A DNA stretch of 64,000 nt from Malacoraja senta. Taxonomy: Eukaryota. The position numbers and the translations under genes are program-made. A model generated the notes under the pieces. It worked only from the letters and a program-made list of their open reading frames with translations. It did not search any database and was not told where the DNA came from. Each line of letters starts with the position of its first letter. Positions within the stretch are counted from its first letter, which is position 1. Shown in pieces: positions 14,767 through 63,744 of this stretch. The stretch lies in the NCBI GenBank assembly GCA_038087875.1, contig CM075995.1, positions 9,054,001-9,118,000 of the forward strand, in the 5' to 3' direction.

Positions 14767-14789
14767 AGTAGAGAGACCCTCTAGAGACC

Positions 14790-15880
14790 CTCAGACTACA
14801 CTTCTTCCTCCCATGGCTATCTGGACTACACTTCTTCCCACTCTTGTAAGGACTCTATCCCCCACTCCCAATTCCTCCGTCTACGCCGCATCTGCTCCCA
14901 GGATGAGGCGTTCCACACCGGGGCTTCCGAAATGTCCTCATTCTTCAGGGAACGGGGGTTCCCCTCCTCCACCATAGATGAGGCTTGCACCAGGATCTCT
15001 TCCATACCCCGCAACACTGCTCTCTCTCCCCATCCCCCCACTCGCAACAAGGGCAGAGTCCCCCTAGTCCTCACCTTTCACCCCACCAGCCGTCACATAC
15101 AACAAGTGATCCTCCGTCAGTTTCGCCACCTCCAACGTGACCCCACCACTCGCCACATCTTCCCATCTCCCCCATGTCTGCCTTCCGCAAAGACCGCTCC
15201 CTCCGTAACTCCCTTGTCAATTCTTCCCTTCCCTCCCGTACCACCCCCTCCCCGGGCACTTTCCCTTGCAACCGCAAGAGATGCAACACTTGTCCCTTCA
15301 CCTCCCCCCTCGACTCCATTCAAGGACCCAAGCAGTCGTTCCAGGTGCGACAGAGGTTCCCCTGCATCTCCTCCAACCTCATCTATTGCATCCGCTGCTC
15401 TAGATGTCAGCTGATCTACATCGGTGAGACCAAGCGGAGGCTTGGCGATCGTTTCGCCGAACACCTCCGCTCGGTCCGCAATAACCAACCTGACCTCCCG
15501 GTGGCTCAGCACTTCAACTCCCCCTCCCATTCCGTATCCGACCTCTCTGTCCTGGGTCTCCTCCATGGCCAGAGCGAGCAACACCGGAAATTGGAGGAAA
15601 TGTACCTCATATTCCGCTTGGGTCGTCTGCATCCTGGGGGCATGAACATTGAATTCTCCCAATTTTGCTAGCCCTTGCTGTCTCCTCCCCTTCCTCAGCC
15701 CTTGGGCTCCTAATCCGCCTTTTTCCTTTCTTCTCCACACCCCCCATCAGTCTGATGAAGGGTTTCGGCCCGAAACGTTGCCTATTTCCTTCGCTCCATA
15801 GATGCTGCTGCACCCGCTGAGTTTCTCCAGCATTTTTGTGTACCTTCGATTTTCCAGCAGCTGCAGTTCCTTCTTAAACA
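14790..15880 (+). mobile_element. Penelope-like element, 5'-truncated (RT thumb, GIY-YIG endonuclease, pLTR)
   Basis: SQFLRLRRICS, RVPLVLTFHP, NLIYCIRCSRCQLIYIGETKRRLGDRFAEHLRS, GMNIEF. Confidence 0.93.
15748..15783 (+). ncRNA. Minimal hammerhead ribozyme-like motif in Penelope pLTR
   Basis: CUGAUGA-A-GGG(uuucgg)CCC-GAAAC-GUU; helix I only ~2 bp. Confidence 0.6.
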
Positions 15881-16056: not shown

Positions 16057-16213
16057 AGGGCCTGTCCCACTCAGCGATTTTTTTCGGCGACTGCCGGCGT
16101 CATATCAGCGTCGTCAAAAGATTTTGAACGTTTCAAAATCCCCCAAAAAGATGTTGCGACACTTGCAAAAAAAGTCAAACGTCAAAAGTCAAACGTCAAA
16201 AGTCAAACGTCAA
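16057..16213. mobile_element. Harbinger-type MITE left arm (right part at ~19533-19610), split by CR1
   Basis: tta|agggcctgtcccact TIR shared with other copies. Confidence 0.75.
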
Positions 16214-19200
16214 GTACAGGTTGCACTTTTGTGGAAGGTGTGACCTGTACAAAAAGGATGGGTTGCACTTGAACCTGAGGGGGACCGATATCCTGGCGGG
16301 GAGATCTGCAAAGGCTACTGGGGAGACTTTAAACTAGAATGGTTGGGGCGAGGGACTCAAATAGAGAATGCTATTAGACAGTGTGTGAGGCAGGAGGCAG
16401 AGAAGGAAAGCACTCAGACCCAACATGTAGGGGGGAAAGAAGAAAACAATAATAAACAGAGAATAAGAGGTGGTGGGGTTCTTAAATGGGTGAGCAGAGA
16501 AACAGAGGGGTGTAAAATGCGGACGGAAGCATTAGGTAGCAAGGTGAAAAGTAAAAGTGGCAGGCAGACAAATCTAGGACAAAAATCAAAAAGGGCCACT
16601 TTTCAACATACTTGTAAAAGGGGTAAGAGCGTTGTAAAAACAAGCCTGAAGGCTTTGTGTCTCAATGCAAGGAGCATTCGTAATAAGGTGGATGAGTTGA
16701 ACGTGCAGATAGCTATTAATGATTATGATATAGTTGGGATCACGGAGACATGGCTCCAGGGTGACCAAGGCTGGGAGCTGAACATCCAGGGATATTCAAT
16801 ATTCAGGAGGGATAGAGAGAAAGGAAAAGGAGGTGGGGTAGCGTTGCTGGTTAGAGAGGAGATTAACGTAGTGGAAAGGAAGGACATTAGCTTGGAGGAT
16901 GTGGAATCGGTATGGGTAGAGCTGCGAAACACTAAGGGGCAGAAAACGCTGGTGGGTGTTGTGTACAGGCCACCTAACAGTAGTAGTGAAGTTGGGGATG
17001 GCATCAAACAGGAAATTAGAAATGCGTGCAACAAAGGCAAAACAGTTATAATGGGTGACTTCAATATACATATAGATTGGGTGAATCAAATTGGCAGGGG
17101 TGCTGAGGAAGAGGATTTCTTGGAATGTATGCGGGATAGTTATCGAAACCAACATGTAGAGGAACCAACGAGAGAGCAGGCTATTCTAGACTGGGTAATG
17201 AGTAATGAGGAAGGGTTAGTTAGCAGTCTTGTTGTGCGTGCCCCCTTGGGCAAGAGTGACCATAATATGGTTGAGTTCTTCATTAGGATGGAGAGTGACA
17301 TTGTTAATTCAGAAACAACGGTTCTGAACTTAAAGAAAGGTAACTTTGAGGGTATGAGACGTGAATTGGCCAAGATTGACTGGCAATTAGTTCTAAAAGG
17401 GTTGACGGTGGATATGCAATGGAAGGCATTTAAAGACTGCATGGATGAACTACAAAAATTGTTCATCCCAGTTTGGCAAAAGAATTAATCAGGGAAGGTA
17501 GTGCATCCGTGGATAACAAGGGAATTCAGGGATAGTATCAAAGCAAAAGATGATGCGTACAAATTAGCCAGAAAAAGCAGCATACCAGAGGACTGGGAGA
17601 AATTCAGAGACCAGCAGAGGAGGACAAAGGGCTTAATTAGGAAAGGGAAAATAGATTATGAAAGAAAACTGGCAGGGAACATAAAAACTGACTGCAAAAG
17701 TTTTTATAGATATGTGAAGAGAAAGAGATTAGTTAAAACAAATGTAGGTCCCTTGCAGTCAGAAACAGGTGAATTGATCATGGGGAACAAGGATATGGTG
17801 GACCAATTGAATAACTACTTTGGTTCCGTCTTCAATAAGGAAGACATAAAAAATCTGCCGGAAATAGCAGGGGACCGCGGGTCAAAGGAGATGGAGGAAC
17901 TGAGTGAAATCCAGGTTAGTCGGGAAGTGGTGTTGGGTAAATTGAATGGATTAAAGGCCGATAAATCACCAGGGCCAGATAGGCTGCATCCCAGAGTACT
18001 TAAGGAAGTAGCTCCAGAAATAGTGGATGCATTAGTGATAATTTTTCAAAACTCTTTAGATTCTGGAGTTGTTCCTGAGGATTGGAGGGTAGCAAACGTA
18101 ACCACTTTTTAAGAAGGGAGGGAGAGAGAAAATGGGGAATTACAGACCAGTTAGTCTAACATCGGTAGTGGGGAAACTGCTAGAGTCAGTTATTAAACAT
18201 GGGATAGCAGCACATTTGGAAAGTGGTGAAATCATTGGACAAAGTCAGCATGGATTTACGAAAGGTAAATCATGTCTGACGAATCTTATAGAATTTTTCG
18301 AGGATGTAACTAGTAGAGTGGATAGGGGAGAACCAGTGGATGTGTTGTATCTGGACTTTCAGAAGGCTTTCGACAAGGTCCCACATAAGAGATTAAAATA
18401 CAAACTTAAAGCACACGGTATTGGGGGTTCAGTATTGATGTGGATAGAGAACTGGCTGGCAAACAGGAAGCATAGAGTAGGCGTAAACGGGTCCTTTTCA
18501 CAATGGCAGGCAGTGACTAGTGGGGTACCTACCGCAAGGCTCAGTGCTGGGACCCCAGCTATTTACAATTTATATTAATGAACTGGATGAGGGAATTGAA
18601 GGCAACATCTCCAAGTTTGCGGATGACACTAAGCTGGGGGAGGATGCTAGGGGACTGCAAGGTGACTTGGATAGGCTGGGTGAGTGGGCAAATGTTTGGC
18701 AGATGCAGTATAATATGGATAAATGTGAGGTTATCCACTTTGGTGACAAAAACAGGAAAGCAGACCATTATCTAAATGGTGGCCGATTAGGAAATGGGGA
18801 GATGCAGCGAGACCTGGGTGTCATGGTATACCAGTCATTGAAAGTAGGCATACAGGTACAGCAGGCAGTGAAGAAAGCGAATGGTATGTTAGCTTTCATA
18901 GCAAAAGGATTTGAGTATAGGAGCAGGGAGGTTCTACTGCAGTTGCACAGGGTCTTGGTGAGACCACACCTGGAGTATTGCGTACAGTTTTGGTCTCCAA
19001 ATCTGAGGAAGGACATTATAGCCATAGAGGGAGTGCAGAGAAGGTTCACCAGACTGATTCCTGGGATGTCAGGACTTTCATATGAAGAAAGACTGGATAG
19101 ACTCGGCTTATACTCACTAGAATTTAAGAGATTGAGAGGGGATCTTATAGAAACTTACAAATTCTTATGGGGTTGGACAGGCTAGATGCAGGAAGATTGT

Positions 19201-19532
19201 TCCCGATGTTGGGGAAGTCCAGGACAAGGGTCACAGCTTAAGGATAAGGGGGAATCCTTTAAGACCGAGATGAGGAAAAACCTTTTCACACAGAGAGTGG
19301 TGAATCTCTGGAACTCTCTGCCACAGAGGGTAGTTGAGGCCAGTTCATTGGCTATATTTAAGAGGGAGTTAGATGTGGCCCTTGTGGCTAAAGGGGTCAG
19401 GGGGTATGGAGAGAAGGCAGGTACGGGATACTGAGTTGGATGATCAGCCATGATCATATTGAATGGCGGTGCAGGCTCGAAGGGCCGAATGGCCTACTCC
19501 TGCACCTATTTTCTATGTATCTATGTATCTAT
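16214..19532 (+). mobile_element. Long CR1 LINE: ORF1 esterase C-terminus plus whole ORF2 (APE endonuclease + RT), disabled
   Basis: DGLHLN..ETLN* ends 16337; NARSIRNK, GITETWL, MGDFN, SDH, FADD; stop at 17488, frameshifts near 18105, 18530, 19160. Confidence 0.96.
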
Positions 19533-20192
19533 GTCATCACGCCGCGAATTTTTCGGTGACTCGATACGACAGTCAATGATGCCGGCAATCGCCGAAAAAA
19601 ATCGTCAAGGCCGTGTAAACACCTCTATTGTATCTGCCTCCACCACCACCTCTGGCAACGCATTCCAGGCACCCACCAACCTCTGCATTAAAAAAAACTT
19701 GCCCCGCACATCTCCTTTAAATGTTGTCGCTATCTCCTACCACATCTCAAAGACGTGGTAGGAGATAGGGTTAAATTGACCCAAGTTTGCAGGGAATGGA
19801 TGAAAATAGAATAAATTAGAACTAGTGTGAACTTGTGATGAATGCTCAGCATGGTGGGTTGAAGAGCCTCTTTCCATGCTGTTTCTCTAAGTTTCTTCTA
19901 CACTAGCCCCACACATCTGCTTCAAACGTTACCCCTCTCACCCTACAGCTATGCCCTCTTAATATTTAATATTTCTATCCTGAGGAAAAAAGGTTCTGAC
20001 TGTCTACAACGTGTCGATGAATATGGAAAATGAGGCCTCGTGAACCTTGCTAACTGAGAACAACTTAGTTTAGTTTATTATCGTCAAGTGTACTGAGGTC
20101 CATGAAAAGCTTTTGTCTGTGTGCCATCCATTCAGAGAAAAGACTACGCATGAATATAATCTAGCCATCGACTGCACAGATAAAGGATAAAA

Positions 20193-49721: not shown

Positions 49722-50766
49722 TCCTCCCTACTGTTGGGCAGCAGATTTAAAAAACTTGAAAGCCCGCACCACCAGACTCAGGAACAGCTTCTTCCCCTCT
49801 GTTATCAGGCTTCTGAACGGTCCTTCCATAAGCTAGGGTACTGTCCGATTCACCTCTACCCCATTGTGGACGTTGGACTTTGTCTCTGGAACTGATGCGC
49901 TACAATGCTGAGAACTACATTCTGCACTCTGTATCTTCCCCTTTGCTCAGCCTGTTGTACTGGAGTTTCACCTGATTGTATTTAGCTACAGAATTCTCTG
50001 ATCTTACACGTATTATCTGTTCTAGGTAGACACAAAATGCTGCAGTAACTTAGCGGGCGAGGGAGCATTTCTGGAGAGGTGGATTGGATGACGTTTCGGG
50101 TCGAGACCTTTCTTCTGACCTGTTTGGATCTGTTTGGGCAGCATGCGAAACAAAGCTTGTCACTATACCTTGGTACATGTGACAATAAACCTAATCCTCA
50201 ACCAATCTGGTTCTTCTTCCGACCCTTTGTAATCAAGAATCTATCTATCTCTGCCTTACCCAATGACAGCCTCCACAGCCATCTGTGGCAATGAATTCTA
50301 CTGGCTGAAGAATAGTTTGGCTTAGTTCAGTTTATTGTCACGTGTGGCAAGGTGCAGTGAAAAGCTTTTGTTGCATGCTATCCAATCAAAGGAAAAACAA
50401 TAGGTGCAGGAGTAGGCCATTCGCCCTTCGAGCCAGCACCGCCATTCACTGTGATCATGGCTGATCATCCACAATCAGTCCCCGTTCCTGCCTTCTCCCC
50501 ATATCCCCTGACCCCGCTATCTTTAAGCCTATCTAACTCTCTTTTGAAGGATCCAGAGAACTGGCCTCCACCGCCCTCTGAGGCAGAGATTTCCACAGAC
50601 TTCACACAAATCAATACATGATTACAATCGAGCCATTTACAGTGTACAGATACATGAAAAAGGAATAACATGAATAACATTTAGTGGAAGATAAAGCTAG
50701 TAAAGGTTCCCACCCGAAACGTCACCTATCCATGTTCTCCACAGATGCTGCCTGACCCGCTGAGTT

Positions 50767-53442
50767 AGATACATAGATACATAGAAAATAGGTGTAGGAG
50801 TAGGCCATTCGGCCCTTTGAGCCTGCACCGCCATTCAATATGATCATGGCTGATCATCCAACTCAGTATCCCGTACCTGCCTTCTCTCCATACCCCCTGA
50901 TCCCTTTAGCCACAAGGGCCACATCTAACTCCCTCTTAAATATAGCCAATGAACTGGCCTCGACTACCCTCTGTGGCAGAGAATTCCAGAGATTCACCAC
51001 TCTCTGTGTGAAAAAGTTTTTCCTCATCTCGGTCTTAAAGGATTTCCTCCTTATCCTTAAGCTGTGACCCCTTGTCCTGGACTTCCCCAACATCGGGAAC
51101 AATCTTCCTGCATCTAGCCTGTCCAACCCCATAAGAATTTTGTACGTTTCTATAAGATCCCCTCTCAATCTCCTAAATTCTAGCGAGTATAAGCCAAGTC
51201 TATCCAGTCTTTCTTCATATGAAAGTCCTGACATCCCAGGAATCAGTCTGGTGAACCTTCTCTGCACTCCCTCTATGGCTATAATGTCCTTCCTCAGATT
51301 TGGAGACCAAAACTGTACGCAATACTCCAGGTGTGGTCTCACCAAGACCCTGTACAACTGCAGTAGAACCTCCCTGCTCCTATACTCAAATCCTTTTGCT
51401 ATGAAAGCTAACATACCATTCGCTTTCTTCACTGCCTGCTCCACCTGCATGCCTACTTTCAATGACTGGTATACCGTGACACCCAGGTCTCGCTGCATCT
51501 CCCCATTTCCTAATCGGCCACCATTTAGATAATAGTCTGCTTTCCTGTTTTTGTCACCAAAGTGGATAACCTCACATTTATCCACATTATACTGCATCTG
51601 CCAAACATTTGCCCACTCACCCAGCCTATCCAAGTCACCTTGCAGTCTCCTAGCATCCTCCTCACAGCTAACACTGCCCCCCAGCTTAGTGTCATCCGCA
51701 AACTTGGAGATGTTGCCTTCAATTCCCTCATCCAGTTCATTAATATAAATTGTAAATAGCTGGGGTCCCAGCACTGAGCCTTGCGGTACCCCACTAGTCA
51801 CTGCCTGCCATTGTGAAAAGGACCCGTTTACTCCTACTCTTTGCTTCCTGTTTGCCAGCCAGTTCTCTATCCACATCAATACTGAACCCCCAATACCGTG
51901 TGCTTTAAGTTTGTATACTAATCTCTTATGTGGTACCTTGTCGAAAGCCTTCTGAAAGTCCAGATACAACACATCCACTGGTTCTCCCCTATCCACTCTA
52001 CTAGTTACATCCTCGAAAAATTCTATAAGATTCGTCAGACACGATTTACCTTTTGTAAATCCATGCTGACTTTGTCCAATGATTTCACCACTTTCCAAAT
52101 GTGCTGCTATCCCATCTTTAATAACTGACTCTAGCAGTTTCCCCACTACCGATGTTAGACTAACTGGTCTGTAATTCCCCGTTTTCTCTCTCCCTCCCTT
52201 CTTAAAAAGTGGGGTTACGTTTGCTACCCTCCAATCCTCAGGAACTACTCCAGAATCTAAAGAGTTTTGAAAAATTATCACTAATGCAACCACTATTTCT
52301 GGAGCTACTTCCTTAAGTACTCTGGGATGCAGCCTATCTGGCCCTGGTGATTTATCGGCCTTTAATCCATTCAATTTACCCAACACCACTTCCCGACTAA
52401 CCTGGATTTCACTCAGTTCCTCCATCTCCTTTGACCCGCGGCCCCCTTCTATTTCCGGCAGATTATTTATGTCTTCCTTAGTGAAGACGGAACCAAAGTA
52501 GTTATTCAATTGGTCCGCCATATCCTTGTTCCCCATGATCAATTCACCTGTTTCTGACTGCAAGGGACCTACATTTGTTTTAACTAATATCTTTCTCTTC
52601 ACATATCTATAAAAACTTTTGCAGTCAGTTTTTATGTTCCCTGCCAGTTTTCTTTCATAATCTATTTTCCCTTTCCTAATTAAGCCCTTTGTCCTCCTCT
52701 GCTGGTCTCTGAATTTCTCCCAGTTCTCTGGTATGCTGCTTTTTCTGGCTAATTTGTACGCATCATCTTTTGCTTTGATACTATCCCTGATTTCCCTTGT
52801 TACCCACGGATGCACTACCTTCCCTGATTTATTCTTTTGCCAAACTGGGATGAACAATTTTTGTAGTTCATCCATGCAGTCTTTAAATGCCTTCCATTGC
52901 ATATCCACCGTCAACCCTTTTAGAACTAATTGCCAGTCAATCTTGGCCAATTCACGTCTCATACCCTCAAAGTTACCTTTCTTTAAGTTCAGAACCGTTG
53001 TTTCTGAATTAACAATGTCACTCTCCATCCTAATGAAGAACTCAACCATATTATGGTCACTCTTGCCCAAGGGGGCACGCACAACAAGACTGCTAACTAA
53101 CCCTTCCTGATTACTCAATACCCAGTCTAGAATAGCCTGCTCTCTCGTTGGTTCCTCTACATGTTGGTTTATATAACTATCCCGCATACTTTCCAAGAAA
53201 TCCTCTTCCTCAGCACCCCTGCCAATTTGATTCACCCAATCAATATGTAGATTGAAGTCACCCATTATAACTGTTTTGCCTTTGTTGCACGCATTTCTAA
53301 TTTCCTGTTTGATGCCATCCCCAACTTCACTACTACTGTTAGGTGGCCTGTACACAACACTCACCAGCGTTTTCTGCCCCTTAGTGTTTCGCAGCTCTAC
53401 CCATACCGATTCCACATCCTCCAAGCTAATGTCCTTCCTTTC
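50767..53442 (-). mobile_element. Young 5'-truncated CR1 LINE
   Basis: Intact 3' stem-loop and (CTATGTAT)n tail; inserted at gagtta/ctcc of a Penelope-derived tandem. Confidence 0.97.
50863..53424 (-). CDS. CR1 ORF2 (partial APE endonuclease + reverse transcriptase), 853 aa uninterrupted
   Basis: YRPP, MGDFN, SDH, KSPGPD, LDFQKAFD, GVPQGSVLGP, FADD. Confidence 0.95.
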   Translation of the reverse strand: MEDVESVWVELRNTKGQKTLVSVVYRPPNSSSEVGDGIKQEIRNACNKGKTVIMGDFNLHIDWVNQIGRGAEEEDFLESMRDSYINQHVEEPTREQAILDWVLSNQEGLVSSLVVRAPLGKSDHNMVEFFIRMESDIVNSETTVLNLKKGNFEGMRRELAKIDWQLVLKGLTVDMQWKAFKDCMDELQKLFIPVWQKNKSGKVVHPWVTREIRDSIKAKDDAYKLARKSSIPENWEKFRDQQRRTKGLIRKGKIDYERKLAGNIKTDCKSFYRYVKRKILVKTNVGPLQSETGELIMGNKDMADQLNNYFGSVFTKEDINNLPEIEGGRGSKEMEELSEIQVSREVVLGKLNGLKADKSPGPDRLHPRVLKEVAPEIVVALVIIFQNSLDSGVVPEDWRVANVTPLFKKGGREKTGNYRPVSLTSVVGKLLESVIKDGIAAHLESGEIIGQSQHGFTKGKSCLTNLIEFFEDVTSRVDRGEPVDVLYLDFQKAFDKVPHKRLVYKLKAHGIGGSVLMWIENWLANRKQRVGVNGSFSQWQAVTSGVPQGSVLGPQLFTIYINELDEGIEGNISKFADDTKLGGSVSCEEDARRLQGDLDRLGEWANVWQMQYNVDKCEVIHFGDKNRKADYYLNGGRLGNGEMQRDLGVTVYQSLKVGMQVEQAVKKANGMLAFIAKGFEYRSREVLLQLYRVLVRPHLEYCVQFWSPNLRKDIIAIEGVQRRFTRLIPGMSGLSYEERLDRLGLYSLEFRRLRGDLIETYKILMGLDRLDAGRLFPMLGKSRTRGHSLRIRRKSFKTEMRKNFFTQRVVNLWNSLPQRVVEASSLAIFKRELDVALVAKGIRGYGEKAGTGY

Positions 53443-53587
53443 TACTCCAGCACTCTGTGAAACGTCACCTATCCATGTTCTCCACAGATGCTGCCTGACC
53501 CGCTGAGTTACTCCAGCACTCTGTGAAACGTCACCTATCCATGTTCTCCACAGATGCTGCCTGACCCGCTGAGTTACTCCAGCATTT
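53443..53587 (+). repeat. Two further 66-bp Penelope-derived tandem units
   Basis: Same unit as 38030-38620. Confidence 0.9.
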
Positions 53588-60844: not shown

Positions 60845-63570
60845 CTCGAGCCGTAACAGAGTAAGGTCAGGGCCAATTGCGAGCGGTGCGAGGGGGGAAG
60901 TGAATACGGAGGTCAAAGTGTTGTATATGAATGCGCGAAGTATAAGGAATAAGGTGGATGAGCTTGAGGCTCAGTTAGAAACTGGCAAGTGTGATGTTGT
61001 GGGAATTACTGAGACATGACTGCAAGAGGGCCAGGGCTGGGAACTGAATATTCAAGGGTATACCTCCTATCGAAAAGACACACAGGTGGGCAGAGGGGGT
61101 GGGGTTGCTCTGTTGGTGAGGAATTAAATTCAGTCCCAAGCAAGGGGTGACATTGAAACAGGAGATGTGGAGTCAGTATGGATAGAACTAAGGAATTGTA
61201 AGGGTAAAAAGACCCTAATGGGACTAATCTACAGGCCCCCAAACAGTAGCTTGGACATAGGGTGCAAGTTGAATCAGGAGTTAAAATTGGCATGTAGCAA
61301 AAGTAATGCTGTGGTTGTTATAGGAGATTTCAACATGCAGGTAGACTGGGAAAATCAGGTTGGTACTGGACCCCAAGAAAGGGACTTTGTAGAGTGCCTT
61401 CGTGATGGATTATTAGAACAGCTTGTATTGGAGCCTACCAGGGAGAATTCTGGATTTGGTGTTATGTAATGAACCGGATTTGATAAAGGACCTCGAGGTT
61501 AATGAGCCATTAGGAGGTAGTGACCATAACATGGTCAGGTTTAATCTACAATTGGCGAGGGAGAAGGGTAGATCGGAGGTGTCAGTGTTGCAGTTGAATA
61601 AAGGGGACAATGGGGCCATGAGGGAGGAGCTGGCCAAAGTTGACTGGAAAGATACCCTAGCAGGGATGACAGTGGAACAACAATGGCAGGTGTTTCTAGG
61701 AATAATACAGAAGGTGCAGGATCAGTTCATTCCTAGGAGGAAGAAAGATTCCAAGGGGAGAAAGGGACGACCATGGCTGACAAGGGACGTCAGGGACAGT
61801 ATAAAAATTAAAGCGAAGAAGTACAACGTAGCAAAGATGAGCGGGAAGCAAGGAGATCAGGTAATGTTTAAAAAACAACAGATAACCAAAAAGACAATAT
61901 GGGGAGAAAAGATGAGGTACGAAGGTAAGCTAGCCAAGAATATAAAGGAGGATAGTAAAAGCTTCTTTAGGTATGTGAAGAGGAAAAAATTAGTTAAGAC
62001 CAAAGTTGGACCCTTGAAGACCGAAAAAGGTGAATTTATTATGGGGAACAAGGAAATGGCAGATGAGTTGAACAGGTACTTTGGATCCGTCTTCACTAAG
62101 GAGGACACAAACAATCTGCCTGATATAGTAGTGGCCAGAGGATCTGGGGTGACGGAGGAACTGAAGGAAATCCACATTAGGCAGGAAATGGTGTTGGATA
62201 GACTGATGGGACTGAAGGCTGATAAATCCCTAGGGCCTGATGGTCTGCATCCCAGGGTACTTAAGGAAGTGGCTCTTGAAATCGTGGATGCATTGGTGAT
62301 AATTTTCCAATGTTCTATAGATTCAGGATCAGTTCCTGTGGATTGGAGGGTAGCTAATGTTATCCCACTTTTTAAGAAAGGCGGGTGAGAGAAAACAAGG
62401 AATTATAGACCAGTTAGCCTGACATCAGTGGTGGGGAAGATGCTGGAGTCAAATATAAAAGTTGAAATAGCCGCTCATTTGGATAGCAGTAACAGGATCG
62501 GTCCGAGTCAGCATGGATTTACGATGGGGAATTCATGCTTGACTAATCTTCTGGAATTTTTTGAAGATGTAACTAGGAAAATGGACAAGGGAGAGCCAGT
62601 GGATATAGTGTACCTGGACTTTCAGAAAGCATTTGATAAGGTCCCACATAGGATATTAGTGGGCAAAATTAAGGCACATGGTATTGGGGGTAGAGTGCTG
62701 ACATGGATAGAGAATTGGTTGGCAGACAGGAAACAAAGAGTAGGGATTAACAGGTCCCTTTCAGAATGGCAGGCAGTGACTAGTGGGGAACCGCAAGGCT
62801 CGTTGCTGGGACCGCAGCTATTTACAATATACATCAATGATTTGGATGAAGGGATTCAAAGTAACATTAGCAAATTTGCAGATGACACAAAGCTGGGTGG
62901 CAGTGTGAACTGTGAGGAGGATGCTATGAGAATGCAGGGTGACTTGGACAGGTTGGGGGAGTGGGCAGATGCATGGCAGATGAAGTTAATGCGGATAACT
63001 GTGAGGTTATCCACTTTGGTAGGCAAAAACAGGAAGGCAGATTATTATCTAAAATGGCATCAAGTTGGGAAAAGGGGAAGTACAACAGGATCTGGGGGTC
63101 CTTGTTCATCAGTCTTATGAATGTAAGCATGCATGGTACAGCAGGCAGTGATGAAAGCGAATGGCATGTTGGCCTTTATAACAAGAGGGAATCGAATATA
63201 GGAGCAAAGAGGTCCTTCTGCAGTTGTACAGAGCCCTAGTGAGACCACACCTGGAGTATTGTGTGCAGTTTTGGTCCCCTAATTTGGGCAAGGACATTCT
63301 TGCTATGGAGGGAGTGCAGCGGAGGTTTACAAGGTTAATTCCTAGGATGGCGGGACTGTCATATGCTGAGTAAATGGAGCGGCTGGGCTTGTACACTCTG
63401 GAGTTTAAAAGGACGAGAGGGGATCTCATGAAACATATAAGATTGTTAAGGGTTTGGACACACTAGAGGCAGGAACATGTTCCCGATGTTGGGGAGTCCA
63501 GAACCAGGGGCCACAGTTTAAGAATAAGGAGTAGGCCATTTAGAACGGAGACGAGGAAACACTTTTTCTC
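60845..63570 (+). mobile_element. Long CR1 ORF2 (EN + RT), disabled; different subfamily from 16214-19532
   Basis: YMNARSIRNK, YRPPNS, GDFN, SDH, FADD with several stops and frameshifts. Confidence 0.95.
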
Positions 63571-63744
63571 ATCATCATTGAATGGCGGTGCTGGCTCGAA
63601 GGGCCGAATGGCCTACTCCTGCACCTATTGTCTATTGTCCACAGTGTACAGGATACATGATAAAGGGAATAATGTGAATCTGCAGGGGTAGAGGTTTCAA
63701 ATAGTGGATCGATTGTAATGCAAATAGTTGCCTGGGTGTGGGCA

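Follow-up and report, generated by a model that had tools for sequence, protein, structure and literature searches.

The question raised by this locus is how a CR1-type LINE makes the protein of its second open reading frame (ORF2), which carries the endonuclease (EN) together with the reverse transcriptase (RT), when the stop codon of the first (ORF1) lies upstream of it. CR1 accounts for 11.8% of the chicken model chromosomes in the available text of PMC11835228. The same problem of producing a little ORF2p from a bicistronic LINE RNA is met by mammalian L1 and silkworm SART1, which differ in using termination-reinitiation, over a 63-nt spacer or at a stop-start overlap, and in yielding separate proteins (PMC5972666, available part). 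The 64,000-nucleotide stretch of Malacoraja senta DNA analyzed here (the window) contains one ORF1/ORF2 junction, at which a sequence-only reading had recognized the slippery heptamer U_UUA_AAC and suggested that this CR1 may make an esterase-ORF1/EN-RT fusion by programmed −1 ribosomal frameshifting (PRF). The phase of the heptamer, its silent sites and the open linker support that suggestion comparatively, and from these sequence comparisons we consider it likely that a conserved junction heptamer drives programmed −1 frameshifting in CR1, giving an esterase-linker-EN-RT fusion.

The element in the window is a decayed, 5′-truncated CR1-type LINE copy on the plus strand (∼16227..19534), as are all its parts. 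The RT pieces are 54–59% identical to amniote-type CR1 loci (L002 and L003) versus 28–43% identical to loci of a sister group in a comparison of identity. ORF1 survives as its last 36 codons plus the stop (16227..16337), the C-terminal end of an SGNH/GDSL esterase (DGLHL…LN). This remnant is 89% identical to a homologous protein, P0001, which matches Lipase_GDSL_2 (E 3.7e-15) and groups with lizard and turtle ORF1s in the esterase tree (support 97), and the ORF1 family profile matches PDB 4c1b, 'ORF1-encoded protein' (E 7e-48). Named ORF1 relatives come from sawshark, eel, two lizards and two turtles, the sawshark protein (P0003) being 57% identical to P0001. In ORF2, an APE-type endonuclease domain (16655..17263; PF03372, E 1.4e-13; PF14529, E 2.3e-10; no PDB match at E 0.01) is followed by an RT domain (18114..18753) that is split by frameshift mutations, with PF00078 found in two frames, and the copy ends in a 3′ UTR and a tail of 8-nt TxTCTATG repeats (19435..19534). 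Elements of the CR1 clade carry an 8-nt repeat tail of the xxTCTRT type and are heavily 5′ truncated. The window copy has such a tail and such truncation, together with the order of APE endonuclease and then RT in ORF2 and an SGNH esterase in ORF1 (as the 36-codon remnant), and it may correspond to HER1, a CR1-type LINE of elasmobranchs whose tail is of the same kind. ORF2 is broken by a stop at 17486–17488, upstream of the RT, and by several frameshifts within the RT. With only 36 ORF1 codons left and ORF2 broken, this copy is unable to make the fusion itself, and is a dead record of the ORF1/ORF2 arrangement.

The geometry of the junction was read correctly from the sequence. ORF1 ends ACT TTA AAC TAG, so that the heptamer (16328..16334) is phased X XXY YYZ in the ORF1 frame with the TAG stop (16335..16337) directly 3′ of it, and a slip of one base back leads into F-K-L-E-W-L-G in the ORF2 frame, which stays open over 16244–17488 and meets the start of the endonuclease at 16655, 109 codons from the heptamer without a stop. 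The first in-frame ATG, placed by the earlier reading about 60 codons on, is at 16517–16519, 60 codons past the ORF1 stop. Between that stop and this ATG the −1 frame contains no stops and the other two frames contain 5 each, and shuffled sequences were equally open in 92/5000 cases over the 59 codons to the first ATG and in 4/5000 up to the endonuclease. The motif by itself is common, as TTTAAAC occurs 15 times in the 64-kb window, and TTTAAACTAG with at most one mismatch occurs 5 times versus 4.06 expected, while the chance of finding any X XXY YYZ heptamer at one given phased site is ∼0.0025. It is placement, and not rarity of the motif, that exceeds chance at the window junction, which combines a phased heptamer with a downstream ORF that lies in the −1 frame and is open from the heptamer onward.

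Relatives were sought in 52 of 64 parts of a metagenome contig collection by two esterase motifs lying ∼110–140 codons upstream of the junction. At least 131 were confirmed and 80 were kept among the matches listed; five genome-contig loci proved to be bacterial esterases and are excluded from all counts, and four scans of viral contigs gave no relative. By best protein match, the listed loci divide into 29 of amniote type and 51 of the second, or sister, group. Of the amniote-type loci 13 reach the junction, while 14 end too soon and 2 are disrupted ahead of it. These 13 junctions, 7 of which come from one contig set and one of which (L006) was anchored by hand, all share descent. Clustering at 80% identity puts them in 10 clusters, and at 70% in 6, with junction regions that are 43–84% identical to one another and 41–50% identical to the window. 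TTTAAAC is exact in 10/13 of them and carries one or two changes in the other 3/13 (L006, L007, and L060); the stop that follows is TAG in 9/13 and TAA in 1/13, all among the matches listed. L002 has a second TTTAAAC (L002:62) in its G+C-rich 5′ part, ∼1.8 kb upstream of the junction, which is probably there by chance.

Further evidence comes from positions that are silent in ORF1. In the listed junctions together with the window, the leucine codon at the heptamer is TTA in 14/14 rows (13 and the window) versus 8/101 leucine codons elsewhere, the asparagine codon is AAC in 11/11 rows versus 12/29 elsewhere, and the codon before the leucine ends in T in 14/14 rows versus 106/445 codons elsewhere, the codon backgrounds taking ten loci to be in frame throughout. 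Of 33 further third positions not one is invariant (mean 0.63), and all of the best eight of 133 7-mers in the alignment overlap the heptamer, again among the matches listed. The sequence-only reading had asked whether synonymous heptamer positions vary freely, and they are fixed. Fixation of silent sites means that the constraint is on nucleotides and not on Leu-Asn, and conservation of this kind at a slippery site is what −1 PRF predicts. The idea that a C-terminal Leu-Asn is required in the protein, with the codons set by chance, has in its favor the LN end of 41/88 ORF1 homologues, but it is largely refuted by these counts, the LN position floats 25–39 residues from the catalytic motif, and the alignment with the solved ORF1 esterase 4c1b stops at position 285 of the 289 in the profile; we regard it as extremely improbable.

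The ends of ORF1 proteins extend the comparison. The DGxH motif is present in 96 of 151 ORF1 homologues, and 88 terminate 18–45 residues past it. A C-terminal dipeptide compatible with a slippery site is present in 52/88 (LN 41, GN 9, KN 1, NL 1) and ends 24–39 residues from the catalytic motif, the background of such dipeptides in the domain being 5.2%. The heptamers G_GGA_AAC, A_AAA_AAC and U_UUA_AAC are among the most shifty in the available text of PMC5009743. The GN, KN and FF ends are known from protein only, and two classes, internal KN and FF, were set up post hoc. In a quick tree used for grouping only, LN, GN, internal KN and FF/FL ends are mixed in one 83-row group with weak support (83), an 8-row group has no slippery-type ends, and the in-frame loci described below form a separate clade (support 97). 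No significant match was found among 70 candidates for longer proteins spanning the linker, and none of 12 long or odd homologues was an esterase-endonuclease fusion with a Pfam match for the endonuclease. Two LN-ending CR1 ORF1 esterases (P0040 and P0095) appear in the database fused to FNIP and FAD-oxidoreductase domains, which are probably errors in gene models and possibly cases of exonization.

Since the window has a single junction, comparison of the family within the genome rests on aligned reads and contigs. Four runs (X1, X11, X21, and X23, of which X21 contributed just 4 reads) were aligned to the window at 80% likeness, and 40/91 variable sites were listed. The linker consists of module A (16338..16488), which is open in the −1 frame without an in-frame ATG, and module B (16489..16654), which holds the first in-frame ATG and likely derives from recombination with another subfamily, as loose ends lie at 16488, 16519 and 16526. 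The linker looks chimeric in that other family members diverge at 16488 or carry different sequence before 16526, and in the window subfamily two linker modules seem to have been joined by a recombination that preserved the frame. In a short-linker form, position 16488 is followed directly by the start of an endonuclease without a change of frame (12 contigs of X1, 29 contigs of X11, and 332 RNA reads of X23), and module A as present in the window has no in-frame AUG. Checked by hand over the 40/91 listed sites, the variants add no stop or AUG to module A, and none falls within 16317–16348, which is not significant alone. The single-base gaps listed for X23 at 16424–16450 represent 21 nt replacing 27 nt, as two loose-end consensuses show.

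Stops in the linker, or length changes not divisible by three, had been named beforehand as a condition that would refute frameshifting, and in the sequences compared neither this condition nor that of freely varying silent sites did so: the length changes that can be resolved keep the −1 frame, although the endonuclease is in another frame in 5/10 decayed amniote-type copies. Among the matches listed, the endonuclease of these loci starts 30–93 codons downstream, and of the ten in which it is reached, it lies in an open −1 frame in 4/10 and in the −1 frame with stops in 1/10. Some old amniote-type copies carry frameshifts in ORF1 as well. We read the off-frame linkers as probable decay of old copies; meanwhile the count weighs against frameshifting.

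The sister group has a different arrangement at the same place. In its 51 listed loci the esterase end was located in 43 and the endonuclease start in 36, and among the matches listed the endonuclease is in frame with ORF1 in 28/36, in +1 in 5 and in −1 in 3, with no phased heptamer in any sister-group locus listed. A single stop separates the in-frame ORFs in 25/28 (7 clusters at 80%; these loci are L012, a subset of L024–L069, L076, and L031). That stop is TGA-CTA in 10, TGA-CCA in 6, other TGA-C in 2, other TGA in 4, TAA in 2 and TAG in 1, and 5/25 of the single-stop loci, among the matches listed, lack a Met ahead of the endonuclease. UGA-CUA is known to act as a readthrough motif (PMC13517186, available part). 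That leaky signals of two kinds occur at this one place points to selection for a fused product.

Whether anything downstream of the heptamer could stimulate slippage was the second part of the original suggestion, which named a weak hairpin and a G-rich tract. The hairpin did not hold up, being weak and lost in relatives, whereas the G-tract is retained as a sequence element at a fixed distance. Two G-runs in the window (16345..16354) begin 10 and 17 nt past the heptamer and are a candidate stimulator. Among the matches listed, a run of 4–6 G begins exactly 10 nt past the heptamer in 10/13 rows, a second at +17 is present in 7/13 (L004 ends too early), and the +10 column is G in every row reaching that far. 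The G residues at +10 and +13 are third positions of the −1 frame, and the rest of the spacer varies in sequence.

Several folds were considered and rejected. The proposed hairpin has a free energy of −3.9 kcal/mol (z −1.4), with z from −0.5 to +0.5 over longer spans, is lacking in relatives, and has one pair broken by 16357 T>G in about two thirds of the X23 reads. A GUUGGG/CCCAAC pairing between 16342 and 16419 conflicts with the 16420 C>A change that most X23 reads carry, and a G-quadruplex is favored in only 1/13 rows among the matches listed (L003), quadruplex-driven shifting being strongest at 6–8 nt in the available text of PMC3919603. Nested folds and duplex scans gave no fold shared across rows, with z-scores of −1.4 to +1.2, and no stable stem-loop or pseudoknot 5–9 nt downstream, and no common site for a long-range partner of the G-tract was found across 8 loci. 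Protein-stimulated PRF calls for a short motif that lies at a fixed distance and is bound by a protein, and of this the listed junctions show the fixed distance, of 10 nt. In the PRRSV nsp2 frameshift a short motif likewise lies 10 nt after the slip site, but that motif is C-rich and its binding by PCBP and nsp1beta has been tested, whereas the CR1 run is G-rich and the likeness is in spacing only (PMC4937337, available part); we take it as a lead to, and not proof of, binding.

The junction signal is conserved and is probably functional in intact elements. In the proposed mechanism, most ribosomes would end at the UAG and release ORF1p, while in a few percent, with UUA in the P site and AAC in the A site, tRNA-Leu and tRNA-Asn would slip in tandem on U_UUA_AAC by one base backward, and decoding would continue with AAA CUA. 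More tentatively, the stimulator would be the G-tract together with the adjacent stop, and a bound protein is more likely to be involved than a fold. The ORF1-linker-EN-RT chain made by this minority shift, the efficiency of which is our estimate, would set a high ratio of ORF1p to ORF2p. As no protease appears to be encoded, the fusion would presumably stay uncleaved. Esterase ORF1p multimerizes by a coiled coil (PMC3905857, PMC5408684; available parts of both), and the coiled coil of its own ORF1 could thus bring the fusion into an ORF1p particle, as Gag-Pol joins Gag. A broader reading, which is doubtful at present, is that recoding is interchangeable within the lineage of LINEs with an esterase ORF1, with −1 slips on U_UUA_AAC, G_GGA_AAC, A_AAA_AAC or U_UUU_UUY and UGA-C readthrough in another branch, and that the vertebrate CR1 slip depends on a protein bound to the G-tract 10 nt downstream and not on a fold. 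If true, such a protein would give the host or ORF1p a switch on RT output, and a stimulator that needs no structure would be of interest for work on recoding.

The main competitor to frameshifting, unlikely in our judgment, is that ORF2 translation begins by termination-reinitiation, either at an AUG in the linker or at a near-cognate codon, the conserved block being a termination/reinitiation signal. Reinitiation has precedent in L1 and SART1 (PMC5972666, PMC5009743; available parts), and an in-frame AUG precedes the endonuclease in the window and in L002, L003, L008 and L020, which are all four intact amniote-type linkers listed. There is also a TAATG overlap at the junction of L020, the loose ends show that other subfamilies keep the ATG at 16517, and TTG and GTG are near-cognate starts. 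However, the start is not conserved, the codon 5 nt past the stop being ATG in 4, TTG in 3, TCG in 3 and GTG, TCC, GAC and TGG in 1 each (listed junctions and window), and module A lacks an AUG. Moreover, reinitiation needs no X XXY YYZ phase, no fixed −1 offset and no open frame before the AUG, it leaves the fixation of silent heptamer sites unexplained, and the shift of the ORF1 end from LN to GN preserves slipperiness and not sequence. Reinitiation and frameshifting could both operate.

Explanations that do not involve decoding at the junction fare worse. It is very unlikely that TTTAAACTAG is a DNA- or RNA-level site for protein binding, packaging or cleavage, which would agree with conservation that reaches past the heptamer into the stop and G-runs and with the lack of a folding stimulator in the junction rows, but would leave unexplained why the heptamer is in phase with the codons and ORF2 in −1, why other slippery dipeptides occur in its stead, and why the sister group has an in-frame UGA-C junction there. 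Still harder to credit is that ORF2 comes from an RNA that is spliced or is initiated internally, TAG/N at the ORF1 stop being the splice acceptor. There is a YAG at this position and an unexplained pile of ∼200–240 X23 RNA reads starting near 16317; yet a pyrimidine tract upstream of the TAG is absent, the X23 RNA reads, which are from another organism and may be read-through host transcripts, cross the junction unspliced at a depth of ∼1300, and X23 has no joint at 16338, none of its six best loose ends lying there. Programmed −1 frameshifting is hence the reading that we carry forward.

The −1 frameshift mechanism is already known elsewhere. Coronavirus IBV 1a/1b and retroviral gag-pro-pol share with CR1 the U_UUA_AAC heptamer, its phase, a structural ORF ahead of it and a polymerase ORF in the −1 frame (PMC5009743, available part). 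CR1 is unlike these viral systems in that no pseudoknot or stem-loop was found, the stop directly follows the heptamer, there is no protease, and the case for CR1 comes from sequence alone. Dictyostelium TRE5-A and TRE3-A are APE-type non-LTR elements whose ORF2 is stated to need a −1 frameshift, although they belong to another clade and host than CR1 and no esterase is named for their ORF1 in the available part of that review (PMC5911963). In the available texts, a frameshift with a pseudoknot is drawn for ORF1 of Neptune-type Penelope-like elements, which form another clade (PMC8557442), and a +1 shift, reinitiation or readthrough was suggested from sequence for Paramecium LINE groups 1–3, which are not CR1 (PMC5405496). 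For CR1 no account of frameshifting or of ORF2 translation was found in the literature searched, although subscription journals or Repbase notes may contain one from early on, and 'CR1' is absent from the first 300,000 characters of PMC5009743. If the proposal is true, one of the major LINE families of vertebrates decodes in the manner of retroviruses and not by the L1-type reinitiation assumed by default, ORF2p annotations that begin at a linker AUG carry the wrong N-terminus, the esterase and RT share one chain, and constructs for CR1 assays need the native junction.

Some minor observations concern the surroundings of the junction. The one-mate depth of X23 rises by ∼240 near 16317 and falls by ∼200 one read length on (16317–16467), and this pile reflects either duplication in PCR or an RNA with a discrete end ∼11 nt upstream of the heptamer. 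CR1 is abundant in the window, with ∼60 short 3′ fragments besides longer copies, which include a second copy on the minus strand (50766–53446) that is 97% identical and truncated inside the endonuclease, and a plus-strand copy (60900–63635) of a different CR1 subfamily, 58% identical in the endonuclease and truncated just before it. Upstream of the CR1 element lies a decayed Penelope-like fragment (14785–15750), the GIY-YIG match of which (E 1.5e-4) is just under the curated cut-off. Flanking the element on its two sides are inverted-repeat-like arms, recognized by eye (16070–16110 and 19575–19605), such that the LINE may sit in a MITE.
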